From positions 64,589 to 128,588 of the forward strand of contig JBAZXP010000001.1 in NCBI GenBank assembly GCA_041659805.1: a stretch of DNA of 64,000 bases, given 5' to 3'. The position numbers and the translations under genes are program-made. Source of the stretch: Microgenomates group bacterium. Its GTDB lineage: Bacteria; Patescibacteriota; Microgenomatia; Daviesbacterales; UBA10151. Shown piece by piece: positions 15,892-50,768 of this stretch. The notes under the pieces were generated by a model, which saw nothing but the letters and a program-made list of their open reading frames with translations, did not search any database and was not told the origin of the DNA. How positions within the stretch are numbered: the stretch's first letter is position 1; every line of letters starts with the position of its first letter.

Positions 15892-15892
15892 T

Positions 15893-16558: not shown

Positions 16559-19175
16559 ATTTTATAGAAGATAAAATTGTATCCAGCTTTTGCATGTTTT
16601 TATCCCCCACAGGAGAAACCTTGAGATGAAGAATGCTTTTTTGTTGTGAGAGTACAAATTCTAAGGTCTGTATGCCCTGAGAATCCACCCAAAAGGCTGC
16701 TGTTGCCTCAAACCCTGGTATCTGAGCCAACCCTTTTTTATCCAGCTTTCCTGGAAATTTAAGCAGACTTGTAGCTACCCAATCATCAGGTTTCCCTGCA
16801 AAAGACCCACCATAAAAACTAATAGTAAATTCGCTGTCTGGAACAGAAAGAGTAGCTACTTTACCTTTTTCTGTTATCTTCCAATCTCCAGGGTACTTAA
16901 AAGAAAATCCTTGTTTCTTTTGTTCAAACGTTTTCCAATCAGAAGCTATATTACTGGATAATTCCTGTCCTGTAATTTTTGCTAACTCATTTTGAGCCTC
17001 TTGCTTTATTTGAGGATTAATATCTCCAGCACCTATCACAAATTGTAACTGTTTTTTCGCCTCTTCTACTTGCCCACCAGCTAAATATGCTTTTGCCAAA
17101 TTTAATCTAACCTCAAAGCTTCCTGGCTCTAAATCTACAGCTTCCTTAAAGTATTTTATGCTAGATATCATATCTCCTTTGTTGGCGGCAAATATGGCCA
17201 TACGATTAGCAACTTCCACAGAAAAAGGAGAAATTGCATAAGCTTTTAAGATATATTCTTCTGCTTTTTTCAAAGCAAGAGATTGATCTTCTTTTGTAGG
17301 TGCACTTTGGGCAACACCAAGCAAATAATCCTCCATGGCAATATAGCTCATCCCATATTCTTGTAATAACAAATGATAAGCAGCATTGTAATTTCTTTCC
17401 AAATAGAATGGTTTATGTTCAAAAAATTTTGGATCCTTAAATTTATATGCAAATGAATCATCAGATGGAGTTAACAAATCATCTGCAGTCAGCATTCTGA
17501 ATGAAAGTCCACTAATTACAGGTTTGAGTAATTTAGGATCAAGCTTAAATTTACCTGCATCAGTTCCAGCCAAAACCGTTTCACGAAACACCATTGGGGT
17601 GACATAAACCGGATGTCCGTGATCAATCAGCCATTTGATATACCAGTTCATCACTTCGTTATACTCTTCCAATCTATCCTTTTTGATCATTCCTTCCAAC
17701 TCTTTGGGCATTAAATCAGGTCTATGGGTACGCAAATTATCACGATACCAGGGCAAAATGTACCACATATTGGCAACAACAGGAAAAACATCAGGCCGAT
17801 TTTTTATAACATCATATTCGTAAAAAGAAAGAGAGTTAAAGAAGTCACCGGAGCCTATAAGAACAGCCCCTTTGGGTAAGTTTGAGTATAAATTGTCTGC
17901 ATACTCTGAGGTGGTAATATGGGCACTTCTGTCTAATTTTGGCAACCACCAAAGGAAAGGAACAAGCACCAAAACAAATAGAATAAAGAATATAGATTTA
18001 GGATTTAAGAATTTTTGTTTTAGAGACAATAATATTTTGATTAAAAGACTAAGACCTATACCGATAAAAATAGTGAATATGACATAACTGGCAATAAACC
18101 AGCTTTCCTGATTCCCGGAAAGATATAATCCCCCAAAGATCAGGTTAGTGATTGGAACTGAGATTAGCATCAAAAATAATCTCCAATTTTTTCGCAGTAA
18201 ATAGTAACCCCCAATTAAAATTAAGGGCACTAAGAGAGGTGTAAATTGTAAAAACAGTAAGTAGAAGTACCTACCAACTGATTTGGCGAAAATTTGTGGC
18301 GAACCTGTAAAGCCATTGATGGAATTTGTTCTGGGATCATTGATATCCAATCCTTCCCCTTTTAAATGTCCCCAAAAAAGTTCCGGTGTTTGGGGATCAC
18401 CCCAATTTATAAATGGATGTTGCAAGGCTCTGATGGGCAAATAAGCATATACCAGCGCAGTTAGTCCAAGCACAATTGCTACAACTAAAATAAATCTCTT
18501 AATCCTTACTTTTTTCCAGAGAAAAATTCCTGCAATGAGTAGTGCAGGGATAGATTGAACAATTGTGGGATTTGTGCCTGTAGCCAGTCCTAAAATAACT
18601 GCCCCTAAAATTAAACGTTTGGTAGATATTTTGCCTGATTCAGGAATCAACATCACCAACCCTAAAAGGGATATCATCATTAAATTAGTTAAAATATAGC
18701 TTTCTGTGTTTAGAGTTTGAGACCAAAATTGATAGGAAAAACCTAAAATTAAGGTTGCAGTAAGGCTGATTGCCTGGATTATCGGGGTGGATAATTTGGG
18801 TATATTTTTAAAATAGCCTGTAAATAAATTTTTATCCTCTCTACCCTCTTTCACAAACCAAAAATTATTGCTGATTAATCTAAATAGTAAAAAATAAACC
18901 CAGGTTAAAACTCCCAATGCTGCAAGAACAGACAAAAGCTGCATTCTAAAAAGCACTGAACCAAACGGTATTTTAGTAAATAAGTGCCCAATCATCACAT
19001 AAAAAGGAAATCCCGGTGGATTTGGGATACCTGGCTCAAATGCTGCAGCAATCATAGTACCTGCATCAATATAAAGAATAGAGGGAGCCAGTGTTTTGAT
19101 ATATATAAATCCACAAAACAACCAAATAACTAACAAAAAAGGTAAATGAGGGAAAATAGGGCGAATATTTTTCAC
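16551..19175 (-). CDS. DUF2723 / TMEM260-like GT-C-fold membrane glycosyltransferase with C-terminal TPR repeats and a C-terminal beta domain
   Basis: 874 aa. N-terminus PSILYIDAGTMIAAAFEPGIPNPPGFPFYVMIGHLF matches the DUF2723 signature (..D.GEF..AA..LGI.HPPGYPL). More than 10 predicted TM helices. TPR-like AYHLLLQEYGMSYIAMEDY and KAYLAGGQVEEAKKQL segments. C-terminal domain shared with the next gene. Confidence 0.6.
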   Translation of the reverse strand: MKNIRPIFPHLPFLLVIWLFCGFIYIKTLAPSILYIDAGTMIAAAFEPGIPNPPGFPFYVMIGHLFTKIPFGSVLFRMQLLSVLAALGVLTWVYFLLFRLISNNFWFVKEGREDKNLFTGYFKNIPKLSTPIIQAISLTATLILGFSYQFWSQTLNTESYILTNLMMISLLGLVMLIPESGKISTKRLILGAVILGLATGTNPTIVQSIPALLIAGIFLWKKVRIKRFILVVAIVLGLTALVYAYLPIRALQHPFINWGDPQTPELFWGHLKGEGLDINDPRTNSINGFTGSPQIFAKSVGRYFYLLFLQFTPLLVPLILIGGYYLLRKNWRLFLMLISVPITNLIFGGLYLSGNQESWFIASYVIFTIFIGIGLSLLIKILLSLKQKFLNPKSIFFILFVLVLVPFLWWLPKLDRSAHITTSEYADNLYSNLPKGAVLIGSGDFFNSLSFYEYDVIKNRPDVFPVVANMWYILPWYRDNLRTHRPDLMPKELEGMIKKDRLEEYNEVMNWYIKWLIDHGHPVYVTPMVFRETVLAGTDAGKFKLDPKLLKPVISGLSFRMLTADDLLTPSDDSFAYKFKDPKFFEHKPFYLERNYNAAYHLLLQEYGMSYIAMEDYLLGVAQSAPTKEDQSLALKKAEEYILKAYAISPFSVEVANRMAIFAANKGDMISSIKYFKEAVDLEPGSFEVRLNLAKAYLAGGQVEEAKKQLQFVIGAGDINPQIKQEAQNELAKITGQELSSNIASDWKTFEQKKQGFSFKYPGDWKITEKGKVATLSVPDSEFTISFYGGSFAGKPDDWVATSLLKFPGKLDKKGLAQIPGFEATAAFWVDSQGIQTLEFVLSQQKSILHLKVSPVGDKNMQKLDTILSSIKFI

Positions 19176-19184
19176 TTATTAATC

Positions 19185-21110
19185 TTAGCTAAATTTGAGT
19201 GATGTGACAATAGAATCAAATTGTTTCATTAATTCAGTATTTACAGGATAAACCAGAATTTTTATAATTTTTTCTCCTTTAAACAGATAAAAAAGCATTT
19301 TCTCAACTTCCCCTTCCTTAAAGACCTTTACATATGCATAATCAAAATCTGGAATCTGTGCTAACCCCTGATTCACCAAATTACCATAACTTTCTGTTTG
19401 TGTTTTTAGATAATCTTCTGGAGATTTTTTATTATTTTTATCAAAAAGTAAAACCATTTCAAAGCTTTTATCTTCATTCATAATTCGCAAATCTAAATTC
19501 TTAAATCTCTCCTCAACACTCCAACTAAAGGGATAAGAAAAAGAAAATCCTAATGGAGAAACATAATTTTGTTTAGTTAAATTATCTAAAATTATTTTCC
19601 CTTCCCAAAAATTTGGATCTGCTTTAACTGCTAATTTATAATTTTCTATAGCTTTTTCTTTATCCCCTATTTGTTGATAAGTTCTGGCTTTTGAGGCAAT
19701 TGCCACAGCAAAATGTGGATTAATATCAAAAGCTTTTTGATAAGAGAAAATTGCTTTATCTATTTCTCCATTCGAAACATATGCTTCCCCTAACTGAAAA
19801 TATGCATAAGCATTATTGGGATTTGTTTGAATATCCTTTTGCCATAAAGTTATTGCATCTTTCCAATCCCCCACTCTTAAAAAAGTCACGACAAAAAACC
19901 CACCACAAACCAAAACCAAAATTGCTTTATAAAAAAATTGATTATTAATTTTTCCTAATAAATATGTTGCCACTAAAATCAAACCAAAAGACGGGGCATA
20001 TAAAAATTTCTCATGCATTAAAGACCACTGGGGAATAATATTTGAAACAGGAATTAAAGTAATGAAAAACCAACAACCACCAAAAGTAATAATTGGGTGT
20101 TTCCTAAAACTTTTCCAAATTATAAATCCCAAAAAGATTAAAGTAAAAAAAGCCAGTGAGAATTCCCAGTCAAAAATACTTTGGGAAGTTATTGGTTGCA
20201 GGGAATGTCCTCTATATAAAATAGCCTCTATTCCCCTTGGAATAATGTGATTATGCGTTAAATTTATTGGCAAAATCGTTAAAGTAAGATACTCAAATAA
20301 AACTTTAACTCCTGCCAAAAATGTTGAAAAAATACTGCCGTTTAAATATTCTCCTCTACCTACTCCATTAGTTACAATTTGCCTGATCAAAAAAAATCCT
20401 CCAGCTAAAATAAAATATGGCAAATATTTTTTCCAGGTTTTTTTAATACTATTTTTTGTAAAACACAAATCATAAAGAATAATTAAAAAAGGTAAAGTCA
20501 AAGTCATTTCATAGGTAAAAAAAGCTAATAGAGCAAACAGATAAGAACCAAATAGCGCGAGGGGTGGCGCGAAAGAGGGTTCCCATCGCCGCGCCCGCAG
20601 CGACAGCGAGGACGGACGATGGGATACTGGCGCGACAGGACCCCGAGTAAATAAGTAAAGATAAAATGATATTAAAAAGAAAACTATCCCAGTAGCTTCC
20701 ATACTTACTACTGTATAAGCTATAGTTTCTGTATGAATTGGATGTAATGCAAATAATAATCCCCCTGCAAAAGCCAAAGATTTTTTCTTTAAAATAATTT
20801 CCAGAATAAAATAAATTAAAGCTGTAGAAATTAAATGAATGAGTAATGCATGTAAGTGATATCCAAAGGGATTTGTTCCCCAAATGGAATAATAAAAAGC
20901 ATACAAAATACTTCTTATTGGTCTGTAGACTCCTTCATGCCCTGATGGCACAGCACCCTGAAAAAACTCCACAATATTAGATAAAGAATGTCCTTTTTCC
21001 CAAGCGATAATAAAAGTTTTATCATCTATCACAAATTGATTTTGAAATATATTAATGTAAGCAAAGATAGTAACTACAATAATAATTATTAGTGGTAAAT
21101 ATTTTTTCAT
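19185..21110 (-). CDS. TMTC/DUF1736-like polytopic membrane protein (putative protein O-mannosyltransferase family) with C-terminal TPR repeats. Contains a GC-rich in-frame insertion.
   Basis: 641 aa. N-terminus FQNQFVIDDKTFIIAWE...GVYRPIRSILYAFYYSIWGTNPFGYHLHALLIHL matches the TMTC N-terminal F..DD...I..N...YRP...S...Y..FG..P.GYH..N. block. TPR repeats (AYAYFQLGEAYVSNGEIDKAIFSYQKAFDINP). Paralog of the next gene. Confidence 0.6.
   Translation of the reverse strand: MKKYLPLIIIIVVTIFAYINIFQNQFVIDDKTFIIAWEKGHSLSNIVEFFQGAVPSGHEGVYRPIRSILYAFYYSIWGTNPFGYHLHALLIHLISTALIYFILEIILKKKSLAFAGGLLFALHPIHTETIAYTVVSMEATGIVFFLISFYLYLFTRGPVAPVSHRPSSLSLRARRWEPSFAPPLALFGSYLFALLAFFTYEMTLTLPFLIILYDLCFTKNSIKKTWKKYLPYFILAGGFFLIRQIVTNGVGRGEYLNGSIFSTFLAGVKVLFEYLTLTILPINLTHNHIIPRGIEAILYRGHSLQPITSQSIFDWEFSLAFFTLIFLGFIIWKSFRKHPIITFGGCWFFITLIPVSNIIPQWSLMHEKFLYAPSFGLILVATYLLGKINNQFFYKAILVLVCGGFFVVTFLRVGDWKDAITLWQKDIQTNPNNAYAYFQLGEAYVSNGEIDKAIFSYQKAFDINPHFAVAIASKARTYQQIGDKEKAIENYKLAVKADPNFWEGKIILDNLTKQNYVSPLGFSFSYPFSWSVEERFKNLDLRIMNEDKSFEMVLLFDKNNKKSPEDYLKTQTESYGNLVNQGLAQIPDFDYAYVKVFKEGEVEKMLFYLFKGEKIIKILVYPVNTELMKQFDSIVTSLKFS
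20554..20646. repeat. 93-bp GC-rich in-frame insertion inside the TMTC-like gene, absent from the tandem paralog
   Basis: Sequence gcgcgaggggtggcgcgaaagagggttcccatcgccgcgcccgcagcgacagcgaggacgg... encodes RGPVAPVSHRPSSLSLRARRWEPSFAPPLALFG. The flanking protein sequence aligns directly to the paralog (...AFFTYEMTLTLPFLIILYDLCF). It contains the palindrome CGCG-AGGGGTGG-CGCG. Confidence 0.6.
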
Positions 21111-22603
21111 TTGATAATTAATTGATCTAATATTTTTTGGGCTGGAGTAAATTCTGGATTAATTAAAACTACCTGATAAAATTGTTCCCCTGCCAAATCC
21201 CCTCTTTGTGTCTTTAAATAAATATTTCCCAAATTATATCTTGCTTCCCAAAATCTTGGATCCAAATCAATTGTTTTTAAAAAATAATATTTAGCTTTTT
21301 CAAAATTCCCCTGATCACCATATGTAACCCCTAAAGTATAAGCAGCTAAGGCAGATTTAGGATGTTGAGACTCAACCTTTGTCCAAAAACTAATAGGATC
21401 TTTCCAAGCTTGGTTTTGAATAAAAGTTAAAAAGAAATAAGTGATAAGCAATAAGATTGTAATGATGGTAATCCATTTATACTTTTTACTTAACCAAATT
21501 ATAAAATATGAAAGTAGAAGAAAAAAGGAAATAGAAGAAATATAAAGATATTTATCAGCTATAGCAATTCCTTGGGGAAAAAAATAATCAACAGGAAGTA
21601 AGCTCAAAAAAAACCAACCAATACAAAAAGTTATTAATGGGAATTTCTTAAAATATTTGATAGCTACAAAAACCAGAGAAATTAAAACTAAAATTGAAAA
21701 TAAAATATCTAAATCGAATGGTGTTTGGACTAAAATTGATTGTATATTTGAATGTGGAGTCATAAAAGATTCAAAACCTGGGGCTAAATCATGAATATAA
21801 GAAACAGTATTGGGGAAAATTAACAACCCTATATACATCATCATTACCTTGCTCATAGTTAACATGGTGTGATAAAAACTAAAACCCAAATAATCTCCCC
21901 TGCTAAAAGGAATCTGTAAAATAAAGACCCTGAGGATTAAGAAAGAAGCAGTAGCAATAAAATATGGTGAATATACTAGAATCTGTTTTGATAAATTTTT
22001 GAAGTTTAATTTTTTAAAACACAAATCATAAAGAATAATTAAAAAAGGTAAAGTCAAAGTCATTTCATAAGTAAAGAAAGCAAGGATAGCAAAAACTACA
22101 GATAATATATTTTTAGATTTTAAATACAACAAAAATGACGCTAAAAAGAAAACTACTCCTGACATCTCCATACTGGCAGAAATATAAGTTATAGATTCTG
22201 TATGAACTGGATGTAACCCAAACATTAAACTTGTTAAAAATGCCACATATTTTTTCTTGATTAGCTCCATTACCAAAAAGTAGACCAAAATTGTAGCTAA
22301 TAGATGAACTATTATGGAATGAATATGATACCCCACAGGATTTTCCCCAAAAATTTGCTGGTATACCAAATACAAGGTGCTCCTGATTGGTCTGTAAACT
22401 CCTTTGTGAATCTCTGGCACTTCCCCTTTGAGCAAATCAGGTAGGTTTTCTACATTTTTAACCTGAGGCCAATCCACAATAAAAGTTTTATCATCAATCA
22501 TAAAACCATTTTGGAAAATATTAACGTAAGCCAAAAATGTTAGAATCACTATTATCAGAAGCTGATTTTTTTTCTGACTAAGTAATGTAATTATAATTTT
22601 CAT
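21107..22603 (-). CDS. TMTC/DUF1736-like polytopic membrane protein with C-terminal TPR repeats (paralog of 19185..21110)
   Basis: 498 aa. FQNGFMIDDKTFIVDWP...GVYRPIRSTLYLVYQQIFGENPVGYHIHSIIVHLLA. TPR (ALAAYTLGVTYGDQGNFEKAKYYFLKTIDLDP). Shares a ~50-bp identical DNA block with the paralog (22019..22068 vs 20461..20510). Confidence 0.6.
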   Translation of the reverse strand: MKIIITLLSQKKNQLLIIVILTFLAYVNIFQNGFMIDDKTFIVDWPQVKNVENLPDLLKGEVPEIHKGVYRPIRSTLYLVYQQIFGENPVGYHIHSIIVHLLATILVYFLVMELIKKKYVAFLTSLMFGLHPVHTESITYISASMEMSGVVFFLASFLLYLKSKNILSVVFAILAFFTYEMTLTLPFLIILYDLCFKKLNFKNLSKQILVYSPYFIATASFLILRVFILQIPFSRGDYLGFSFYHTMLTMSKVMMMYIGLLIFPNTVSYIHDLAPGFESFMTPHSNIQSILVQTPFDLDILFSILVLISLVFVAIKYFKKFPLITFCIGWFFLSLLPVDYFFPQGIAIADKYLYISSISFFLLLSYFIIWLSKKYKWITIITILLLITYFFLTFIQNQAWKDPISFWTKVESQHPKSALAAYTLGVTYGDQGNFEKAKYYFLKTIDLDPRFWEARYNLGNIYLKTQRGDLAGEQFYQVVLINPEFTPAQKILDQLIIK

Positions 22604-22659
22604 CTCTTAAATCTTATTTCTTAAATCTTAAATCTGCTTTATTATTATATACTTAACAA

Positions 22660-24459
22660 ATGGGAAGAAAAACAAAGCTCAAATTATTAAAAAAAGAAGT
22701 CCGCACACAAGAACTTCAACAAATTAAAACTCAAAGATTTGATTCCAAAAGAAAATTACTAAATAAAATTTTAACTATATTTACCCTACTGTCTGTTTTA
22801 CTGGCTATTTTATCCTTGGCTTTTGCTGTTTTTAATCCAGGCTTACCTTCAGGACACGATCTGATTGCCCATGCTTTCCGCTCCAAAATCTTTATTGAAG
22901 CCTTAAGAGAGGAACAATTCCCTGTTAGATGGATTGACTGGGCTAATAATAATTTTAGCGGACCTTTTTTTAATTTTTATCAGGTTGGATATTATTATTT
23001 AGCTTTTTTTATCAGTTTAATCTCTTTTTCCATTTATGATTCTATAAAAATCTTAATCATTGGTTCCTGGTGGTTGGGTGCATTGTTTATGTTTCTTTAT
23101 GCCAGACGTTTTGGAATACTTCCGGCGTCTCTGGCTGCCTTAATCTATGCTTTTACCCCTTATACTATTTCTGATTTTTTTGTCAGGGCTTCTTATCCAG
23201 AATGTTTAGCAATTTCACTTAGCATAGGAATTCTTTGGGCTCTTGATAGAATTCTTGTGACAGCCAAAACTATATATGGTATCCCACTCACACTCTGTGT
23301 GGCCGGTCTGGCTCTGACTCATTTGCCTACTGTGATAATACTGGCGCCAATTTTAATTGGATATTTTTTTCTGTTACTTTTTAATAAAGAAATAAAATTA
23401 AAGGGCTTAATACCCTTTGCTATTGCGGGATTACTTGGACTTGGTTTGTCTGCTTTTTATCTTATTCCATCCCTTTTTGAATTGGATTTGGTAAAAAGTT
23501 CACTTTTAACAGCTTCTTATTATGATTTCAGGCCTCATTTTGTGTATCCTGAACAATTATTTTCTACTTTTTGGGATTATGGAATATCGAAAGCCGGAAA
23601 TACTGATGGTATGTCTTTTCAAGTAGGTCACATCAACTGGATTATTATTTTATTGGCTTTAGTGCTAACAACTTTTTACCTGTTTAAGAAAAATCACAAA
23701 AATACCCTTCATTTAGTGTTCTGGTTATTAACCATACTTTATAGCTTTTTCTTTATTCATGAAATTTCTATATCTTTTTGGGAAAATATTCAAACAATAG
23801 CTTTTATTCAATACCCCTGGAGATATTTAATGGTTATTCCAATTGCCACTGCTGTTTTAGCTAGTCTACTGCTACAAACAATCCCTAAAATATGGCAACA
23901 ATCTTTGATAATTCTTATAACAATTTTAGGAATTTTTATTTTTTACAAAGATTATCTGAAGCCCGCAACATTTCTTTCAACTGATTATTTTAAATTTGAT
24001 ACCAATGATTGGCAAAAAAGTGAGGCTGCTAAATATGCAGTTTTAGAAGAAGGATATGAACCCAAAACAGCTGAACTTACACCTCAAGGAAACTTAAATA
24101 AGTGGGCTCTTATTCAAGGTAAAGGAAAGGTGGAAGAAAAAGCTATCAAACAAGAAAACAAACAATTTACAACAACCAGTACAGAAACCTTGGCATTTTT
24201 ATTAACTACCCATTATTTCCCAGGCTGGAAAGCTTATATAGATAATGCAGAAACAAAAATAGAAACTACACAGGGTTATGGTTTCATGCAAATTGAAGTG
24301 CCTCAAGGAGTGCATAAAGTAGAATTTAAATTTACTAATACCCCAATTAGATCAGCTGCTAATTTAATTTCTATATTTTCTTTAATTACTTTTGTAATAT
24401 GGCAAATACTTGCTTGGAAAAAATATTTATTTGTAGATAAGACCAACAGTAGAAGTTAG
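22660..24459 (+). CDS. YfhO-like GT-C-fold membrane protein (putative glycosyltransferase)
   Basis: 599 aa with multiple TM helices. The C-terminal soluble domain YFPGWKAYIDNAETKIETTQGYGFMQIEVPQGVHKVEFKFTNTP matches the YfhO-family C-terminal block (YFPGWKA.VDG....V..G.H.VEF.Y). Confidence 0.5.
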   Translation: MGRKTKLKLLKKEVRTQELQQIKTQRFDSKRKLLNKILTIFTLLSVLLAILSLAFAVFNPGLPSGHDLIAHAFRSKIFIEALREEQFPVRWIDWANNNFSGPFFNFYQVGYYYLAFFISLISFSIYDSIKILIIGSWWLGALFMFLYARRFGILPASLAALIYAFTPYTISDFFVRASYPECLAISLSIGILWALDRILVTAKTIYGIPLTLCVAGLALTHLPTVIILAPILIGYFFLLLFNKEIKLKGLIPFAIAGLLGLGLSAFYLIPSLFELDLVKSSLLTASYYDFRPHFVYPEQLFSTFWDYGISKAGNTDGMSFQVGHINWIIILLALVLTTFYLFKKNHKNTLHLVFWLLTILYSFFFIHEISISFWENIQTIAFIQYPWRYLMVIPIATAVLASLLLQTIPKIWQQSLIILITILGIFIFYKDYLKPATFLSTDYFKFDTNDWQKSEAAKYAVLEEGYEPKTAELTPQGNLNKWALIQGKGKVEEKAIKQENKQFTTTSTETLAFLLTTHYFPGWKAYIDNAETKIETTQGYGFMQIEVPQGVHKVEFKFTNTPIRSAANLISIFSLITFVIWQILAWKKYLFVDKTNSRS

Positions 24460-25668: not shown

Positions 25669-26847
25669 TCAAGGCACACAACCATTGCCATTATTATATA
25701 AAGCAGCTATTTCAGAAGGAGAAAGAGCTCTATTATAAACCCTCACATCTTCAATAGGACCATTAAAATATGTAGTTCCACCTATTTTAAAAGTACCTGT
25801 TGAATGGGTCCCAATACCAGTAGTCCAATTACCATATCCTGGCGTGGTAGCATCCACTCCATTTTTATAAATTTTCATTTGATTTGAGCCATTATAAGTT
25901 GCCACTAAATGAACCCACTCATTTATGTTTAGAGTACCATTACCCCTTGCTTCACCAACACCATTATTATAAATATGAAAAGAGTAGCCTCCAGTAACTG
26001 TTGCAGTACTCCAAATATGAATAGCGTAGCCTCCCCGATCGGTTCCACTAACATATCTTTCTTTGTGCAAAGACCGTGTATAACCATTAACTGGCGGGAG
26101 ACCGAGAGGTTTCATCCAAATAGAAATACTAATAGGGTTTAACCCTTCGATATTTAAACTGGGAACAGTCGTTGTTGATTGTACAACCTTACTGATTCCA
26201 TCAAAATCACCCATTCTTCCAAAACCAGCTTTTTCACTGACTAGGGTGTTTGCAGCACCATATGCTCTTAAATTATTACCCTGACCAGAAGAATCAATAA
26301 CATCATTGCTAGTCCCATTCCAAGAAGCCTCATCTAATTTCCAATATCCCACCAACCCTGAAGTTAATATTCCATAAGGATCACAGGAAGGATTAGATCC
26401 ACCATATCCACCACCACTACCTCCTCCACCTCCCTCAGATAAAGAAGAGCCTTGGGTAGAAGAAGAACAAAAACAAGTGCTGGAGTTTGAGTAACAAGGA
26501 GCACTCTGGTTATCCCCCAGGGAAGCACAGTAAGCTACTCTGTCTGTTGCTTGAGTAATACAACTTGTTTCTGGTCCTACCAAACAAGGGTAATTATTTC
26601 CTTCTGGGGTTTTGGGGATTTTCCCTGCAGCAAAATCTGTAGTAGCTAAAGCTGAATAAGATCCAGCAGAAGAATATTTAACTTCATAAGCTTTAGAGAT
26701 AGCATTTAAGTCTGCTTTTCTTTGAGCATCTCTGGCAGAAGTAGTTACATTTCTAAAAACAGTCACCCCTACCACTGCTAAAATAGCAATAATAGCCACA
26801 ACAACTAGAAATTCTACCAGAGTGAAGCCTTTAATTTTTCCCTTCAT
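25669..26847 (-). CDS. type IV pilin-like protein (prepilin N-terminal methylation motif) with Cys-rich middle region and C-terminal LamG_3 lectin domain
   Basis: N-terminus MKGKIKGFTLVEFLVVVAIIAILA is a class III signal / prepilin cleavage motif (G|FTLVE). C-terminus GYWKLDE...FDG...W.HLVATYNGSNQMKIYKNGVD...IEDVRVYNRALSPSEIAALYN matches the LamG_3 signature. Confidence 0.7.
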   Translation of the reverse strand: MKGKIKGFTLVEFLVVVAIIAILAVVGVTVFRNVTTSARDAQRKADLNAISKAYEVKYSSAGSYSALATTDFAAGKIPKTPEGNNYPCLVGPETSCITQATDRVAYCASLGDNQSAPCYSNSSTCFCSSSTQGSSLSEGGGGGSGGGYGGSNPSCDPYGILTSGLVGYWKLDEASWNGTSNDVIDSSGQGNNLRAYGAANTLVSEKAGFGRMGDFDGISKVVQSTTTVPSLNIEGLNPISISIWMKPLGLPPVNGYTRSLHKERYVSGTDRGGYAIHIWSTATVTGGYSFHIYNNGVGEARGNGTLNINEWVHLVATYNGSNQMKIYKNGVDATTPGYGNWTTGIGTHSTGTFKIGGTTYFNGPIEDVRVYNRALSPSEIAALYNNGNGCVP

Positions 26848-26940: not shown

Positions 26941-27579
26941 ATGAGTTTTTCGGAAAAAGAAATAGACACATATTTAAAAATTACAGAACAAGTTACTCCT
27001 GAAGATAAAAAAGCAGTTACAGCAGCGTTTATCAACGAAGAAACCAGAATCAAAACCTTAAAATCTTTAGGCCTGTTAGGAGATCCAACTAAATTATCGT
27101 TTTATTCTATAGATAATGTCAGTAGGATGGCTGAAGAAGAGCTTGTCAAGCTTAAATATAGCAGTGAAAACGCTCTATTACTGGAAAATTTGAACAGATG
27201 GGTCCAGAGAGTTAATCCTGAACCTTGGACAATTGACGCCCAAACTATCGGTATTGCCCTAATACTCCGCATGTTTAGATACCAATACGGAGATATATTT
27301 CCTGTCAAACTTGAAAAACTTAATCCCGGAAAAGCAATGAGAGCATTTGAAAAAACGCCATTCCAATTTAATTCAGCTCCGTCAACTATTATATCGAGAC
27401 TAATGAGCTCTCCGGAGCATGAAGCCATCCCTATTTATCAACCGAATATACAAGATAGCTTAAGCAGAATTACCTGCAAATTACCGGGGCTGACACATTT
27501 TATTGAAAGAGGTGCCGGTGGAATGTACCGGATAATTGAAGATTCCTGGCAAGATTTATCCCCTCTTACTCAAAAATAA
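26941..27579 (+). CDS. hypothetical protein
   Basis: 212-aa ORF directly downstream of a good promoter and followed by a terminator hairpin. No recognisable motif. Confidence 0.45.
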   Translation: MSFSEKEIDTYLKITEQVTPEDKKAVTAAFINEETRIKTLKSLGLLGDPTKLSFYSIDNVSRMAEEELVKLKYSSENALLLENLNRWVQRVNPEPWTIDAQTIGIALILRMFRYQYGDIFPVKLEKLNPGKAMRAFEKTPFQFNSAPSTIISRLMSSPEHEAIPIYQPNIQDSLSRITCKLPGLTHFIERGAGGMYRIIEDSWQDLSPLTQK

Positions 27580-27600
27580 TAAATCAAAAAATCCCAACAA

Positions 27601-27624
27601 AAAACCTCCTTTAGGGAGGTTTTT
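27601..27624. terminator. bidirectional rho-independent terminator hairpin (AAAACCTCC-TTTAG-GGAGGTTTTT)
   Basis: Perfect stem flanked by A-run and T-run. Lies between the stop of 26941..27579 (+) and the 3' end of the 5S rRNA (-). Confidence 0.6.
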
Positions 27625-27631
27625 ATGATAT

Positions 27632-27748
27632 TCCGGCAATGACATATTGTCCCGGGGCCTTTCGACCCTAGTATCGTCGGCGCTGCAATCTTTGACTGCT
27701 GAGTTCGGGATGGGATCAGGTCGTTCGGTTGCGCTCAAATCACCGGAC
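27632..27748 (-). rRNA. rrf: 5S ribosomal RNA
   Basis: Reverse complement reads TCCGGTGATTTGAGCGCAACCGAACGACCTGATCCCATCCCGAACTCAGCAGTCAAAG...AGCGCCGACGATACTAGGGTCGAAAGGCCCCGGGACAATATGTCATTGCCGGA. Conserved CCCATCCCGAACTCAG and AGCGCCGA.G.TACT blocks with helix I pairing. Confidence 0.8.
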
Positions 27749-27824
27749 ATCTATAATACCAAATTTTGCTCTAAGAATCAAGGATCTAGACATGCCAAAT
27801 CAAATTATATAAAATATCCTCCTA

Positions 27825-28142
27825 ATGCCGAATAAGGAAGTTTACAGCCCGCTACTTGATGCCGTTCTAAAACAAGTAGGAGCAATAGAAAATGACGTGA
27901 CATACTATGACTTCTATGATAATAGTATCCATGGGCGTGGGGAAAAAAAATTACTCAGTCTTGATCTTCCGTCAGGAGACATGCTTTTAGTATACTATCC
28001 ACCAGCATATTACGGTGCCAGTCTGGTTGGGAAAGACCCCATACTTTATTATCCCACTAAACTTGCTGACCAAATTCATGCAACAATAGCCAGTGTTGAT
28101 AAAGAACACGAGTTTTCCGCCCGAAGATACGACTTCTATTAA
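27825..28142 (+). CDS. hypothetical protein
   Basis: 105-aa ORF with a Tyr-rich composition and no motif. Confidence 0.3.
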   Translation: MPNKEVYSPLLDAVLKQVGAIENDVTYYDFYDNSIHGRGEKKLLSLDLPSGDMLLVYYPPAYYGASLVGKDPILYYPTKLADQIHATIASVDKEHEFSARRYDFY

Positions 28143-28147
28143 TTAGA

Positions 28148-29245
28148 TTAAGTTTCTGAAGGCTTAAAGAGCCCCTGACCTAAAACATACCAAAACATGA
28201 CTAAAACAGCTACGCTCAAAGGATTAAAACACAAAGCATATATTAACCCAATTAACAAAGCTAACATAAACCTATTATCTGAAGCTAAAAAGTGATAAAC
28301 AGAGATAATCAGGATCCAGAGAAAAAGAAGAACACCTAAAATCCCCCCTTGAACCCAAAAATCTAAGAATATATTATGACTGCTATCAACTATCTGATAT
28401 TGCACATTATTATTTAGCTGCTTGGCACTTTTAGCCAAAGAGCTTTGAACATTACCAAATCCATTACCATAAATCGGAGAAGACCAACCTGCATGGTATG
28501 CTGTCTGCCAAATCTCTGCCCTGTTTTCAAACCACCCTCCGCCCTCAATAAATGGGAACGATAAGCTGGCTACAATAAGCAGAAAGCCTATAATTGAGGT
28601 TTTTTTAACCTCTAGTAAAAGGTTTTGACTCAGTATTATATATATAATCGTTACAAAAAATGCAAAAAGTCCAGACCTGCTTCCGGATAATAGTATTAAC
28701 TCTAAACAAACAATTAATGAAACTATCCAGTATTTCCACCGGTTTCTGAAAAAGACGCAGGTAAAGAAAAAAATGGCAACAGCAGCTAAAGAATTCGGTT
28801 CTCCCAAAGTTCCCACTGCCCTACCGTTTAAGGTAGCCCCAAAAATAAATCCAATTAAGGCCAAAGTTAAAAGCATTGAAAGAAATAAAAAATAGAAGAA
28901 GCCGTTTAGCTTCATTACATTAATTTGGGAAGAAAGAATGGCAAAAACAATCAAATGCCAGACTAAAAAAACACCCTGGAGTCTGAAAATGTTACCGAAA
29001 AACAACTTAAAATCAGGATTAATAATCAGAGTGCTGAATGTGAGTAAAAAAAGCAAAATAAAAGGTAAAACAACCCAGCTTTTAAGCTTCTTTAAGTGAT
29101 TAGAAAAAAGGCTCACAAGGAGTAAAGCTTCCACCCCAACCTCTACCCCAATCACTTTGGGAATCTCGAAAAATGAAGTTCCGAACGGAAACACAAAAAA
29201 AGGAAGAAAGAAAACCAAGGCTAAAATAATTTGACGGGCATTCAC
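28148..29245 (-). CDS. polytopic membrane protein, possibly O-antigen ligase (Wzy_C)-like
   Basis: 365 aa with about 10 TM helices. The pattern GSRSGLFAF..TIIY resembles the O-antigen ligase core. Assignment is tentative. Confidence 0.35.
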   Translation of the reverse strand: MNARQIILALVFFLPFFVFPFGTSFFEIPKVIGVEVGVEALLLVSLFSNHLKKLKSWVVLPFILLFLLTFSTLIINPDFKLFFGNIFRLQGVFLVWHLIVFAILSSQINVMKLNGFFYFLFLSMLLTLALIGFIFGATLNGRAVGTLGEPNSLAAVAIFFFTCVFFRNRWKYWIVSLIVCLELILLSGSRSGLFAFFVTIIYIILSQNLLLEVKKTSIIGFLLIVASLSFPFIEGGGWFENRAEIWQTAYHAGWSSPIYGNGFGNVQSSLAKSAKQLNNNVQYQIVDSSHNIFLDFWVQGGILGVLLFLWILIISVYHFLASDNRFMLALLIGLIYALCFNPLSVAVLVMFWYVLGQGLFKPSET

Positions 29246-30512: not shown

Positions 30513-31011
30513 AATCTGTGAATTATAGGACTTTGATGATATTTTGTCAACCTATAGTGAATTTAGGAGAAATATTTTATTTGTACTTCAAAATGTGAAT
30601 ACGACTTGGGTTAAAGGCTTTTAGCCAAAAAATCTCAACGATGACCATTAGTACTCTTAAGCTAAACACCTTACGATGCTTACACTGAGAGCCTATCAAC
30701 CCGGTAGTCTTCCGGGGGTCTTAAAGATTCCTAATCTCAGGATCTGCTTCGTGCTTAGATGCTTTCAGCACTTATCAGGAAAGAACGTAGCTACCCGGCG
30801 CTGCCATTTTGTGACAACCGGCACACTAGAGGTTCCCTCGTCTCGGTCCTCTCGTACTAGAGACAACTTCCCTCAAGAATCAAAACGCCCATACTGGATA
30901 GAGTCCAACCTGTCTCGCGACGGTTTGAACCCAGCTCGCGTACCACTTTAACTGGCGAACAGCCAGACCCTTGGGACCTTCTACAGCCCCAGGATGTGAT
31001 GAGCCGACATC

Positions 31012-31455
31012 GCTGTCTATTTGTCTATAATTACTTATAGGATCAGACTATACCTTCATCCAAATCGGTATATCAGAAAATCAGAGAATCAGCAGATCAG
31101 AAATATCTGAATCGCCGACTCGCCGAAACACTGACAAACTGAACTGGAGCTAGCCTTTTATTCAAGTTTCCTTCCGGATTATCCGGGACCTTGAATCCCT
31201 CCGATGTTACATCGGAGAAGTCGTTACGGGGCCAAATCCAGAAAATCAGAAGAATCAGAAAATCAGAAGAATCAGAAATTTCACTTTCCGATGTTCCGAT
31301 ATTCAGATTTTCAGATATTCCAAACCTAGTTTCCCTCGGTATTATCCTCACATTACTGTCAGGACTTCACCGATTTTAGCTAGTATTTTTTGTTCAAAAA
31401 GATTTCTAATTGTTATAACAGTGCTACAGAATTACTCCTGCCGCACCCCAATGTT
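31012..31455 (-). mobile_element. ORF-less ~440-bp insertion (putative group I intron or intervening sequence) in 23S rRNA at a position equivalent to E. coli ~2499/2500
   Basis: The conserved GGCACCTC|GATGTCGGCTCATCAC is interrupted here: the exons read GGCACCTC ... [insert] ... GATGTCGGCTC. The insert contains AATCAGAA(G/A) microsatellite repeats and no long ORF. Confidence 0.6.
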
Positions 31456-31496
31456 GAGGTGCCGAACGATACCGTCCTTGTGGACTGTTGGGTATC

Positions 31497-31530
<34 letters not shown>

Positions 31531-31842
31531 ATAAGCCTACTCCCTCCCACGAGGTAAGTAGGGATCACTAAAGCCTGCTTTCGCACCTGCTCGACTTGTA
31601 AGTCTTGCAGTCAAGCACACTGTATACTTTTGCGCTTAAATCTCCGTTGCCATTGGAGATAAGTGTACCTTTGCACTCCTCCGTTACTTTTTTGGAGGAA
31701 ACCGCCCCAGTTAAACTGCCCGCCAGACCTTGTTACGGTGCCAGATAATGGCTACCGCTAGAGATTTAAAAATCTAAAAAAGAGGTGTTTCATTGTCGCC
31801 TAAGCTCCCTCCTACTCTACATAAATAAATTTTCAAACCAGG

Positions 31843-31880
<38 letters not shown>

Positions 31881-31981
31881 AAGTATGGGAAGGCCGCATC
31901 TTCACAGCCACTGCAATTTCGCCGAGTCTATCCTCAAGACAGTTCCTAAGTCGTTCTACCTTTCGTGCGGGTCTGAACTCC

Positions 31982-32383
31982 ATTTTAAAACTGTCATTCT
32001 AAAATGAATATACGCACAACTTTACAGTCGTGGTATCTTCTTCTTCAAGCCTTCGGCTTGTAGAATAAATTTTAGAAGTCTTACATTTGTTTTTATGATT
32101 TAATGATTTTTAAATCCTCTACATCGCTATAGAGATCGGACTATATCTTGCCCCGATTGCTCGGGACTCCAACGTGTAGTCTCTGAGGGTTCCCTTACGG
32201 GCCTTCCCTGCTGATTGACTCCACTGATAGATTGTCACTCTTACGAGTACTATCAGATACTGAGTTATTCCAGCATATAGTTGGATTTTCACTACTTAAG
32301 GTTTTTTGCATACTAATCTAGCAATTTTCAACGAATTCCCGAGTGTTGTACATTGCTGTACATTCTAGCAAGTTTGTTTCCGC
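31982..32383 (-). mobile_element. ORF-less ~400-bp AT-rich insertion (putative group I intron or IVS) in 23S rRNA at a position equivalent to E. coli ~1917
   Basis: Exon sequence CCTTGTCTGGTAGGT...[insert]...GGAGTTCAGACCCGCACGAAAGG corresponds to E. coli CCTTGTCGGGTAAGT|TCCGACCTGCACGAATGG. The intervening ~400 nt has no rRNA homology. Confidence 0.55.
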
Positions 32384-33290
32384 ACCTACCAGACAAGGAA
32401 TTTCGCTACCATAGAACAGTTATAGTTACTGCTGCCGTTCACCAGATCTTAGACCCCTTCCTCGTCCCAAAATTACTTCTGGGAGTCAAGAGAGATTTTA
32501 AATTACTGGCACTGGGCAGGTGTCAGCCCCTATACATCAGCTTTCGCTTTAGCAGGGACCTGTGTTTTTGCTAAACAGTCGCTCAGGATCATTAACTGCG
32601 TCCCACATTGCTGCGGGAAGGACATCTTGCAAACTTACGTCCAGCTTTTGTTGCCGAGTTCCTTAAGGATAGTTCTCTCGATCGCCTGTGTATACTCAAC
32701 TCGCCCACCTGTGTCGGTTTGTGGTACGGCTTGATACTGTCCCCTTTACGAAACTTTTCCTGAAAACAGAATATCATTCACTTACGTATTCGTAACTCGA
32801 ATATGCATTCTGACAAGTCTTGCGACTAATCAGAACGTCCTGACTTGCGTCAGGCTGAGAACGGATTTTGCCTATTCTCACTTCCTTGTCACTTAAACCC
32901 CCATATAGAGGGCTAAATTAATCCCATTTTGTCCTTCCGTAAAGTATGCACGAACAGCACATATACCCGAATTTTGACGGGTATTCCATCGACTACGCCA
33001 TTTGGCCTCGTCTAAGGTACCGATTAACCCTGATCTGATTAACATTGATCAGGAAACCTTGGGCATTCGGCGTTAATGTTTTTCACATTAATTTCGCTAC
33101 TCATACCGGCATTCTCACTTCTATGCGCTCCACCCTGCCTCACGACAAAACTTCACTGCACATAAAACGCTCCCCTACCACGCAACTGATAAATCTCAGT
33201 TGCATCCGTAGCTTCGGTAGAACTTTTAGCCCCGGTTCGTTGTCGGCGCGAAATCCCGTAGTAGACCAGCGAGCTGTTACGCTTTCTTTA

Positions 33291-33327
<37 letters not shown>

Positions 33328-33893
33328 AAGGAATTTCACATCCTTTAACACTTAAAGTTCATTTAGGGACCTTAGCTGTCGGTCTGGGTTGTTTCCCTCA
33401 GGACCGCTCCGCTTAGCCGGATCGGACTGACTCCTGTTACACACGTTAGTATTCGGAGTTTGATTGGATTGACAGTCTTACGACCATCAGATCCATCCAG
33501 TGCTCTACCCCTAACGTGATTGCGCAGGGCTATACCTCAATATATTTCGGGGAGAACCAGCTATCTCCGAGTTCGATAGGCATATCACCTCTAACCACAC
33601 CTCATCCTAGACTATTGATACAGTCACAAGTTCGGGCCTTCCCCGCCTTTTACAGCAGGTTCACCCTGGACATGGTTAGCTCACTCGGTTTCGGGTCTGC
33701 CATATTCTCCTAAATCGCCCGGTTAGGGCTCGCTTTCACTACGCCTACAAACATTACTGTTCTTAGACTTGGAGAATAAGACAACTCACCGGTTCATTCT
33801 TCAAAAGGCACACGGTTCCCTGAATTAAATTCAGGGTTCCGCAGCTTGACAACATACGGTTTCAGGTACTATTTCACTGAGCGTTCCGCTCTT

Positions 33894-33933
<40 letters not shown>

Positions 33934-34735
33934 CGAAAGTATATTTAGCCTTAACAAGTGGTCTTGCTAGCTTCACCCAGGATTACACGTGTCCTAGGTT
34001 ACTCAGGAGTCCGACCACGGCAGTCCAGATTTCGCTTACAGGGCTATCACCCTCTTTGGCATTCCTTTCCAGGAATTTCAGCTATCCGTTCTACTCGCTA
34101 CTGTCGGTCCTACAACCCCACGGGTTTCAAGTATTGCTACCTGAAGTGATCTGTGGTTTGGGCTTTTCCCTTTTCGCTCGCCACTACTAGGGGAATAAAC
34201 TATTGTTCTCTTTTCCTGCGCTTACTTAGATGTTTCAGTTCAGCGCGTACCCCTCCCGACGTTATGAATTGGCGTCGGGATAATTATCGATTAAGATAAT
34301 TGGATTATTCCATTCGGAAACCTCTGGATCATAGCTTCTTAGCAGCTTCCCAGAGACTATCGCGGCTTAGTGCGTCCTTCTTCGGTACTTTCGACCAAGG
34401 CATCCACCGTATGCATTATTGTTGAGTATCTTTTGGCTTGTATTTCAGTTAGTCAGAGTTTCAGAGGATCAGCAAATCAGAAAATTCTGACTCGCCGATT
34501 CGCCGATCTTGCCGACCTGCTGAATAATTTGGCCTTCTTCCCAAAATAGGTTACAGGTTTTAGGTTACAGGTTACAGAATTCTTGCGTTTCCTGTTCACT
34601 GTAAACTGTCCCCTGTTCACTATTTTATAAATCGTATTCACATTTCAAAGTGCAAAAATCCAGATTATCTGGAACTCAGAATACCGGAAGTTAATTCCGA
34701 TGCTCTGAGTTAACAGATCATCCAAACTGTCCCCT

Positions 34736-43576: not shown

Positions 43577-43619
<43 letters not shown>

Positions 43620-43802
43620 AATAAAAGTGAATTTGTATCCAGCTCCACTAATAAATCAATGAAGCTTTCAACAAGCTTCACTCAAAGAATTGACAAAAGA
43701 TTATCTCAATAAATTGAGATTGCACTCTTGTTTATCGATTTACCTAGACTTGGTAAATCATTTTCCCACCACTTTTCCGGAATTAAACGCCTAAAAAGGC
43801 AT

Positions 43803-48092: not shown

Positions 48093-48096
48093 TTAT

Positions 48097-49713: not shown

Positions 49714-49774
49714 AATTTAGCCAGCAGTTGCATTTTTCCTTAAGATATATATATAGTTAAAGTATACAAGATGT

Positions 49775-50764: not shown

Positions 50765-50768
50765 AACT

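Follow-up and report, generated by a model that had tools for sequence, protein, structure and literature searches.

Results and Discussion

A gene with modular pilin architecture

The minus strand of the Microgenomates contig analyzed here carries, in a 64-kb window (by which we mean the whole stretch of DNA under study, 64,000 nucleotides), a complete coding sequence with the layout of a modular type IV pilin. Read from its 5′ end, the gene is made up of the following parts.

25669..26847 (-), complete coding sequence of the modular type IV pilin, 392 aa plus the stop codon at 25669-25671 (ORF list)

26827..26847 (-), leader peptide MKGKIKG, aa 1-7, net charge +3, ending in Gly-1 (direct sequence reading; N_methyl and TIGR02532)

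26680..26826 (-), alpha1 helix of the mature pilin, aa 8-56 (AF2 helix 10-56, pLDDT >90)

26458..26679 (-), globular pilin head, aa 57-130, a three-stranded beta-sheet with six Cys (AF2 strands 88-91, 104-109, and 125-130)

26386..26457 (-), flexible Gly/Ser-rich linker, aa 131-154, TQGSSLSEGGGGGSGGGYGGSNPS (low pLDDT)

25672..26385 (-), LamG_3/ConA-like jelly-roll domain, aa 155-392 (Pfam Laminin_G_3; AF2; Foldseek)

The reading frame begins with ATG and has in-frame stops immediately upstream, so the pilin leader is MKGKIKG. Its 392-aa product is 100% identical to an NCBI/JGI/ENA entry (P0001) named [quoted passage not shown]. Across all six frames of the window this ORF alone has a prepilin-type N-terminus; the window lacks a second pilin and holds none of pilB, pilC, pilD, pilM, and pilT. 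Recent horizontal acquisition of the gene was considered, but there is no sign of it, because the GC content (0.393) lies near the window mean (0.379) and the gene order around the pilin is kept in a Daviesbacteria genome. Scans for promoters and terminators in its surroundings did not exceed shuffled controls (15 promoter-like sites, 11.9 expected), and no clear operon boundary emerged to separate the pilin gene from the S1 gene downstream of it. In composition the protein is of the extracellular type, with a GAST content of 40% as compared with 26-29% in the cytoplasmic proteins of the window.

Signal peptide and pilin module

The sequence-only reading had described a canonical prepilin N-terminus, and profile searches bear this out. 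Prepilin peptidase is predicted to cut between G7 and F8 (MKGKIKG/FTLVEF), which places Gly at -1, Phe at +1, and Glu at +5; in the class III signal as a whole, MKGKIKG/FTLVEFLVVVAIIAILAVVGVTVF, the +1 residue is Phe and the +5 Glu lies inside a hydrophobic stretch of about 21 residues. The Pfam N_methyl profile matches aa 4-26 with 28.3 bits (cut-off 21.2) and TIGR02532 matches with 26.6 bits (cut-off 16.3). Residues F8 (+1), L10, and E12 (+5) are invariant across 65 homologs.

The AlphaFold model of the full protein (pLDDT 83.3, pTM 0.77) consists of a lollipop-shaped pilin joined by a disordered linker to a jelly roll. In the pilin part, a long alpha1 helix packs on an antiparallel beta-sheet head with pLDDT of about 90. 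The helix begins with a hydrophobic alpha1N bearing Phe+1 and Glu+5, which gives way to an amphipathic alpha1C with an ARDxxRxxDL motif. The head contains Cys at positions 88, 96, 107, 118, 125, and 127. In the homolog alignment, C88 and C96 are gained or lost together across the family while C107/118/125/127 vary as a quartet, a covariation from which we infer that the six residues may form three disulfides. This Cys-bearing stretch had been taken for a Cys-rich linker in the sequence-only reading; it is instead the beta-sheet pilin head, and the true linker is the Gly/Ser-rich segment at aa 131-154. The linker has a GAST content of 75%, differs in sequence and length between homologs, and is predicted to be disordered over its ∼24 residues (pLDDT <50 at aa 137-152 in the AF2 model). 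A Ser/Thr-rich segment at aa 120-137, where head and linker meet, might carry O-glycans.

PDB matches of the pilin module comprise the PilA proteins of Geobacter, Thermus, Myxococcus, and PAK, together with GspG, PpdD, and S. sanguinis PilE1; its best matches are exclusively major pilins or pseudopilins, and the sequence matches to solved pilins reach aa 101-130. The module (aa 8-130) is complete, keeps Glu5, and resembles a major pilin. Membership in the equivalog models for GspG/H/I/J, ComG, and Myxococcus PilA was rejected, with scores far below the cut-offs: the T2SS major pseudopilin model GspG (TIGR01710) gives 25.8 bits against a cut-off of 88.85 and covers only aa 6-62, and the Myxococcus PilA model NF041775 matches aa 5-107, again far below its cut-off.

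The LamG domain

A complete LamG_3 domain, as had been proposed, is present. Laminin_G_3 (PF13385) matches aa 226-381 with an E value of 1.8e-22 and 80.5 bits (cut-off 27.6), covering profile positions 7-151 of 151, so that the two profiles suggested for checking, N_methyl and Laminin_G_3, both exceed their curated cut-offs. The structural domain (∼aa 155-392) is larger than the Pfam match: in the AF2 model a two-sheet, jelly-roll beta-sandwich spans aa 165-387. In 38 of 38 close homologs C155 and C390 are found together, and the pair would staple both ends of the domain; with it included, a scheme of four disulfides is likely for the whole protein. Foldseek returned 302 PDB matches for the domain at E ≤ 1e-3, of which the best are LamG/ConA-like modules. 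Matches with E values of 1e-9 to 1e-11 include AbnA domain 4 (5hon_A, TM 0.71 on the target), clostridial neurotoxin Hc, and the lectin domain of trans-sialidase, and the family profile matches 4qvs with an E value of 7e-30. Taken together, the Pfam, TIGR02532, AF2, Foldseek, and profile matches confirm the original description, a pilin-like protein of the type IV class that ends in a LamG domain.

What the domain binds is suggested by its relatives. By analogy with AbnA domain 4 and sialidase CBM40, and with the characterized pilin analogues, we infer that it may bind carbohydrate. LamG_3 also occurs in non-lectin contexts (neurotoxin HcN, neurexins, pentraxins), so glycan binding is read here from the fold class. 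The domain might instead be no lectin at all, recognizing a protein or having a structural or aggregative part to play, for example, in bundling pili or in contact between cells; this reading is compatible with display on a pilus, but we regard it as somewhat unlikely. The nearest solved relatives do include neurexin LNS, pentraxins, neurotoxin HcN, and an S-layer-domain protein, which have non-carbohydrate ligands or no known sugar ligand. Moreover, no conserved sugar- or Ca-binding signature could be defined and no ligand-binding residues could be identified in the domain; its conserved residues (W169, W244, W311, and the DDVRIYNRAL motif) are framework positions. However, several of the best matches are true carbohydrate binders, namely, AbnA domain 4, which was solved with ligand, and the CBM40-type lectin domains of sialidases, and the characterized pilin analogues bind glycans (S. 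sanguinis PilC and, as proposed, TM7x PilX1). A GH16-like glucanase role was rejected; the ExDxxE catalytic motif is absent from the domain on direct sequence reading, which makes an enzymatic role unlikely.

Homologs and their loci

Pilins of this kind had been called rare in the sequence-only reading, a view that does not survive the database searches. Approximately half of the best 120 database homologs combine N_methyl and Laminin_G_3 in 360-440 aa, dozens of CPR homologs have the same pilin plus LamG architecture, and 229 such proteins have been catalogued (PMC8179133). When the full-length family alignment was searched as a profile against 1.84 billion representatives, it gave 963,184 matches at E ≤ 1e-3, a number dominated by multi-LamG giants and unusable for counting the pilin plus LamG architecture; the best 150 matches are all giant multi-LamG proteins of 1,295-7,764 aa with 6-36 matched stretches. 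A scan of genome contigs with the same alignment gave at least 600 stretches, mostly partial and either pilin-only or LamG-only, and among six loci checked (L010, L012, L013, L017, L024, and L078) only L013 has the homolog in a single ORF.

Most of the sampled homologs are orphan genes amid housekeeping genes. At locus L003, two LamG-pilin paralogs lie directly upstream of genes for a HisKA protein, a response regulator, PilB (MshEN+T2SSE), and PilC (T2SSF). The same locus further encodes a PilA/GspG-like pilin of 164 aa and four minor-pilin-like genes, and the LamG-pilin paralogs, upstream of pilB, are separate from this minor-pilin block. A T2SSE ATPase lies 3-7 kb from the homolog in loci L089 and L090.

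The two halves of the protein differ in their conservation. Alpha1 is 58-68% identical across close homologs, and the framework of the LamG domain is conserved, whereas aa 246-355 are hypervariable (4-20% identity among close homologs). Some loci hold arrays of two or three paralogs with differing heads. In L091 the carriers are 55-76% identical and the heads 32-35%, and the L003 paralogs share 97.9% DNA identity over the pilin module and are then unrelated, with a sharp junction at GYWKxDE beyond which only a 60-nt stretch, encoding a conserved C-terminal motif, is similar (76.7%). Since the pilin carrier is conserved and the LamG head hypervariable, it may be the head that sets binding specificity.

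A probable pilus-borne adhesin

CPR/Patescibacteria presumably spend their lives attached to other microbes, and the few surface machines that they conserve include type IV pili; lectin-headed pilins are obvious candidates for partner recognition. In our view, this CPR bacterium probably makes a modular type IV pilin from the gene and displays the LamG domain from the pilus as an adhesin. A prepilin peptidase, whose gene would lie elsewhere in the genome, would remove MKGKIKG and N-methylate Phe8, and by means of alpha1N and Glu5 the T4P machinery (PilB, PilC, PilM, and others) would pull the subunit from the membrane into the pilus, so that LamG would hang off the filament by its linker as the binding module. 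The most probable target would be a glycan on the surface of a partner or host microbe, another component of such an envelope, or else a substrate surface. Processing by PilD and assembly by PilB/PilC would be consistent with the neighborhood of L003 and with the reported conservation of pilB/T/M/C in most Patescibacteria phyla (PMC11623550).

Going by S. sanguinis PilC and TM7x PilX1, the subunit would most likely be of low abundance, and the sequence-only suggestions of a minor tip pilin and of host glycan recognition are reasonable, with the provision that the "host" of a CPR bacterium would be another microbe rather than an animal. Minor pilins of GspK/PilX/PilABC-type tip complexes are often encoded together with the core minor pilins, and the capping subunit often lacks Glu5; here, Glu5 is present and the window holds no neighboring pilins.

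In a different placement, the protein would be an abundant, major-type subunit or one incorporated all along the filament, yielding pili coated in LamG instead of a single tip adhesin. We consider this unlikely, even though the pilin module is complete with Glu5 and its best matches are to major pilins or pseudopilins and to standalone CPR pilins. The LamG pilins of L003, upstream of a pilS/pilR-like pair and pilB, also occupy what we take, from its likeness to pilA loci, to be the classical pilA position. In addition, a disordered linker of ∼24 residues would let LamG be shown along the filament body, a location that Raynaud et al. also considered such linkers could permit (PMC8179133). On the other hand, L003 encodes its separate small PilA/GspG-like pilin, the paralog arrays with different heads fit accessory adhesins better, and similarity in alpha1, being common to all pilins, discriminates poorly. 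Every modular pilin studied experimentally is, moreover, a minor pilin (PMC8179133, PMC9934059, PMC11623550). We are similarly doubtful that CPR pili are sheathed in the lectin domains of such a filament-body subunit, and of the related notion that the family acts as a recombining cassette of one nearly invariant carrier and interchangeable adhesin heads; were the latter true, the carrier/head repertoire could define which partners or hosts are open to these episymbionts.

Pilins reside in the membrane before assembly, and the prepilin-like N-terminus might be only a membrane anchor or export signal of a LamG protein that is surface- or pseudopilus-associated (T2SS-like or competence-type) and never enters an extended pilus. 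The absence of machinery and other pilins from the window, the orphan setting of most homologs, and the subthreshold matches to GspG/H/I/J and ComG models point that way, but we judge it very improbable: those matches are not only far under the cut-offs but also confined to the shared N-terminal helix, a classical T2SS role is unlikely because, to our knowledge, CPR cells have no outer membrane, and both the strict conservation of F+1, E+5, and the entire alpha1 and the co-location of pilB and pilC in L003 argue for filament assembly.

Comparison with known systems

The protein has all the elements by which Raynaud et al. (2021, PNAS, PMC8179133) define modular pilins, that is, the IPR012902 motif, a pilin module, a linker, and a domain that is not T4P-specific. 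In their catalogue, which is bioinformatic only, IPR012902-PF13385 is the most frequent modular-pilin architecture (229 of >1,200 proteins, Dataset S1), and the example in their figure appears, by listing order, to be from a CPR bacterium (Ca. Magasanikbacteria). The two-signature layout of these proteins, a class III signal and pilin module followed by one C-terminal PF13385, is identical to ours. The Microgenomates subfamily adds an 8-Cys pattern and a Gly-rich linker.

Streptococcus sanguinis PilC (Shahin et al. 2023, PMC9934059) is a minor modular pilin whose lectin module binds glycans and which has been modeled at the pilus tip. Like the present protein, it has a class III signal with Glu5 and a pilin moiety fused to a module of the ConA-like lectin/glucanase superfamily. 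However, its pilin moiety is short and distorted and is accompanied by an Ig-like module, whereas ours has a complete pilin module, a long disordered linker, and no Ig-like module in the AF2 model; organism and envelope context differ as well. PilC was found neither among the PDB sequence matches at E ≤ 1 with the single sequence nor among the best 60 with the family profile. We therefore regard PilC as an analogue and not as an orthologue.

Another relevant protein is TM7x PilX1 from Nanosynbacter lyticus (PMC11623550), a minor pilin whose C-terminal domain is a beta-jelly-roll resembling L-type lectins and is proposed to bind host cell-wall glycans; rhamnose inhibits host binding. By its published description, it too is a pilin of a CPR bacterium that ends in a lectin-like jelly roll. 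In PilX1, though, the domain is absent from CD-Search and no PilD-type signal is predicted (PMC11623550), whereas the LamG_3 domain and the prepilin signal are both clear here.

Other relatives share one half of the protein. Standalone CPR pilins (PilA/GspG-like, 140-180 aa) are 55-60% identical in alpha1 and the start of the head and have a C-terminal Cys motif, CAxLE...C...Q, similar to CAxL...C...C.C..S.Q in our head, but they stop where the linker begins and lack LamG. Conversely, the S-layer-domain protein 4qvs, Geobacillus AbnA domain 4, and a six-LamG protein in the window (1949 aa, 10042-15891, each repeat 28-30% identical to the LamG of the pilin) have the common fold and the GYWKxDE and DDVRIYNRALS motifs without a prepilin signal or pilin module. 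The haloarchaeal filament subunit TafC (NF052521) resembles aa 166-388 of our protein in its C-terminal part, but it is exported by the Tat pathway and assembled by another system (PMC11821415); our protein has a prepilin signal and no twin-arginine, and with 27.1 bits against a cut-off of 410 its membership in NF052521 was rejected.

The present protein is probably a pilus-borne adhesin. As a Microgenomates example it is well defined, since its cleavage site is clear and its domain boundaries are known, and it could be expressed for glycan-array work. It opens no new category, being of the commonest catalogued modular-pilin type and having functional precedents in Streptococcus and Saccharibacteria.

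A Modular Pilin Encoded in the Window

The sequence-only reading placed a type IV pilin-like protein with a C-terminal LamG domain exactly at the following open reading frame:

25669-26847, minus strand: pilin-LamG gene, ATG start, 392 aa

In-frame stop codons lie directly upstream of the ATG, so the N-terminus is MKGKIKG-FTLVEFLVVVAIIAILAVVGVTVF. The class III signal is supported by two profiles above their cut-offs, Pfam N_methyl (aa 4-26, 28.3 bits, gathering cut-off 21.2) and NCBIfam TIGR02532, the prepilin-type N-terminal cleavage/methylation domain (26.6 versus 16.3). Pfam Laminin_G_3 matches aa 226-381 (E 1.8e-22, 80.5 bits, cut-off 27.6) over profile positions 7-151 of 151, nearly the full profile. 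A missing class III signal and an insignificant LamG match had been named as the two grounds for rejecting the assignment; both fall away, and the observation is thus confirmed. In a six-frame regular-expression scan, this ORF carries the sole prepilin-type N-terminus of the 64-kb window. The GC content of the gene is unremarkable, and the GAST content of its product (40%, versus 26-29% in cytoplasmic proteins of the window) fits an extracellular location. On all testable criteria, the product qualifies as a type IV pilin and as a LamG_3 domain protein, and it fits the definition of modular pilins given by Raynaud et al. (PMC8179133). Membership in the GspG, ComG, Myxococcus PilA and TafC equivalogs was rejected, with scores far below the cut-offs.

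Predicted Structure and Cysteine Pairs

An AlphaFold2 model based on 65 aligned homologs with the same architecture (mean pLDDT 83.3, pTM 0.77) contains these elements:

aa 10-56: long helix
aa 88-91, 104-109 and 125-130: small beta-sheet
aa 137-152: low-confidence segment, coinciding with the Gly/Ser-rich stretch SEGGGGGSGGGYGG
aa 165-387: beta-sandwich, with a short helix (377-387) at its end

The helix and small sheet are predicted to form the classical pilin lollipop. What had been read as a Cys-rich linker does not stand, since the modeled sheet falls at the Cys-rich stretch, making it the globular head of the pilin module, and the low-confidence segment marks the true linker as Gly-rich. 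Below, we call the pilin module (aa 8-130) the carrier and the LamG domain (~aa 155-392) the head, with the linker at aa 131-154. Across the family, C88 and C96 come and go as a pair, and C107, C118, C125 and C127 act as a quartet. This co-occurrence supports four disulfides, with the pairing itself inferred. C155 and C390 occur only together, also where the quartet is missing, and so probably tie the N-terminal end of the LamG domain to its C-terminal end.

Relatives of the Carrier and the Head

Every solved structure that matches the carrier is a major pilin or pseudopilin (Geobacter, Thermus, Myxococcus and Pseudomonas PilA; GspG; PpdD; S. sanguinis PilE1). A database search with aa 1-135 only retrieved standalone CPR pilins of 140-180 aa, whose alpha1 is 55-60% identical to that of our protein and which end in a similar Cys-containing motif. 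Given these matches, the protein looks like a complete small pilin extended by a linker and a LamG domain.

Foldseek matches of the head in the PDB (E 1e-9 to 1e-11) include domain 4 of the Geobacillus arabinanase AbnA (5hon_A, carbohydrate-binding; TM 0.71 normalised on the target), clostridial neurotoxin Hc fragments and the lectin-like domain of trypanosomal trans-sialidase. At the sequence level, the family profile matches the S-layer-domain LamG protein 4qvs (E 7e-30), neurexin LNS domains, CBM40-type domains of sialidases and pentraxins; protein binders are among the relatives of the head. The head is also 28-30% identical to each LamG repeat of a giant 1949-aa protein in the window (10042-15891, plus strand), which has six Laminin_G_3 domains and an N-terminal DUF2341 and probably serves this organism as a further surface adhesin.

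Close homologs share 58-68% identity in alpha1 and keep the LamG framework motifs, but match at just 4-20% over LamG aa 246-355, a profile that fits a "carrier plus specificity head" design. Two tandem paralogs in the homologous locus L003 (1948-4935; ENA ERZ28564264, ANAN16-1 scaffold_29), with an 83-aa ORF and a PIN-domain gene between them, share 97.9% DNA identity across nt 25-496, which covers the pilin module and linker up to GYWKMDE. Past this motif, nucleotide similarity is undetectable apart from 60 nt at the C-terminal motif, and so sharp a boundary suggests module swapping or gene conversion. A second array, in L091 (93-4964), packs three paralogs into 5 kb, the first two separated by an S1-domain gene; the carriers of the three are 55-76% identical and their heads 32-35%.

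Genomic Context

Unlinked rRNA genes and LAGLIDADG ORFs mark the genome behind the window as CPR-type. The rRNA genes are listed here together with two membrane-protein loci:

27631-27747, minus strand: 5S rRNA, ~780 bp upstream of the pilin-LamG gene
30629-34429, minus strand: 23S rRNA, containing a group I intron
42234-43625, minus strand: 16S rRNA, unlinked to 5S and 23S
16551-24459: large membrane-protein cluster with GT-C-like signatures (TMEM260-like O-mannosyltransferase N-domain plus TPR, 874 aa; TPR, 641 and 498 aa; YfhO-like, 599 aa)
28148-29245, minus strand: Wzy_C (O-antigen-ligase family) membrane protein, 1.3 kb upstream of the pilin-LamG gene

Protein-coding genes separate 5S from 23S, and the pilin-LamG gene itself lies downstream of 5S. 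Unlinked rRNA genes, a 23S intron and LAGLIDADG ORFs are typical of CPR genomes. Near the tRNA and 16S genes are two ORFs for LAGLIDADG endonucleases, and a 23S-rRNA-intervening-sequence protein is also encoded; 32117-32376, 39869-40663, 41486-41914 and 15779-16558 belong to this set of rRNA, intron, LAGLIDADG and intervening-sequence features. Short ORFs at 27556-27750 and 27647-27835, overlapping the 5S rRNA, are probably spurious.

An S1-domain protein gene lies 66 bp downstream of the pilin-LamG gene; other neighbors encode the YfhO-like protein, two TMEM260-like/TPR membrane glycosyltransferase-type proteins, the Wzy_C protein and an fn3 protein. Pilin O-oligosaccharyltransferases (PilO/TfpO, PglL) are members of the Wzy_C family, and the pilin-LamG protein is rich in Ser/Thr at aa 120-137; the Wzy_C-pilin adjacency is not kept in the Daviesbacteria locus L001.

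Elsewhere in the window, a giant GAST-rich (49%) protein of 2115 aa (3280-9627, plus strand) begins, in an odd pairing, with a DNA-binding MerR-type HTH (aa 14-50) and carries Peptidase_S74 (endosialidase-chaperone) near aa 1730-1785; a second Peptidase_S74 protein has 505 aa (57966-59483, plus strand). A two-gene cassette is duplicated in tandem at 47160-52412 (plus strand), each copy having an unannotated ORF (310 or 329 aa) followed by a 538- or 547-aa protein with three thrombospondin type 1 (TSP_1) repeats, a domain known chiefly from eukaryotes. LysM proteins lie on both sides (45987-47093 and 52657-53982).

Link to Pilus Genes

Among annotated ORFs of at least 100 aa in the 64-kb window, we found no pilB, pilC, pilD, pilM, pilT or second pilin. 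We compared ten contexts: the window, L001, L003-L006 and L089-L092. L001 keeps the pilin, S1, YfhO-like and TMEM260-like arrangement, with no annotated counterpart of the two TPR proteins, and the pilin-to-S1 adjacency recurs in L091. A T2SSE ATPase lies within 10 kb in three contexts (L003, L089 and L090). The link to T4P genes is direct in L003. Immediately after the tandem pilin-LamG pair come genes for HisKA, a response regulator, PilB and PilC, then four for minor-pilin-like products (149, 616, 166 and 129 aa) and one for a PilA-like pilin of 164 aa. At the other loci the pilin-LamG genes are orphans amid housekeeping genes, a placement common for pilin genes. Homologs of pilB, pilT, pilM and pilC occur in most of 56 Patescibacteria phyla (PMC11623550).

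The analysis shows the class III signal, pilin fold, flexible linker, LamG fold and, in at least one locus, association of the family with T4P genes. On the likely reading, PilD would cut at G7|F8 and N-methylate the protein, alpha1N and Glu5 would drive its assembly into T4P, and the LamG domain would be displayed as a putative adhesin. Its incorporation might be into the filament body, as a major-type subunit, rather than at the tip as a minor pilin: the module is complete, Glu5-bearing and major-pilin-like, the disordered linker spans ~24 residues, and Raynaud et al. (PMC8179133) explicitly allow this location for modular pilins if the linker is flexible. We consider this unlikely. An accessory role is favored by every experimental precedent, by the arrays of several paralogs and by the small PilA-like pilin that L003 encodes separately. 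Lectin-sheathed pili and a carrier/head cassette repertoire setting partner specificity are the most interesting remaining possibilities, at similarly long odds.

Comparison with Known Systems

The sequence is already public as P0001, an identical NCBI protein on a 1,130,263-bp contig ([quoted passage not shown]). Pilins of this kind had been called rare, a claim left without support: about half of the best 120 homologs combine N_methyl and Laminin_G_3 at 360-440 aa, and IPR012902-PF13385, with predicted carbohydrate binding, heads Dataset S1 of Raynaud et al. 2021 (PMC8179133) with 229 proteins, in an InterPro search for modular pilins that returned >1,200 proteins in 264 architectures. The named sources among those 120 homologs are CPR lineages (Daviesbacteria, Paceibacterota, "Patescibacteria group"). 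The protein is an uncharacterised addition to an already catalogued kind of pilin.

Orthology to S. sanguinis PilC was rejected, given no sequence match to PilC in the PDB (single sequence at E<=1, or the top 60 with the family profile) and no Ig-like module in our protein; the pilin moiety, complete here, is truncated in PilC. Functional analogues exist in PilC and in PilX1 of the CPR bacterium TM7x. PilC binds sialylated glycans and heparin, carries a ConA-like lectin module, and is placed by modelling at the tip of the pilus together with PilA and PilB (PMC9934059); PilX1 has a jelly-roll, L-type-lectin-like domain, with host binding inhibited by rhamnose (PMC11623550).
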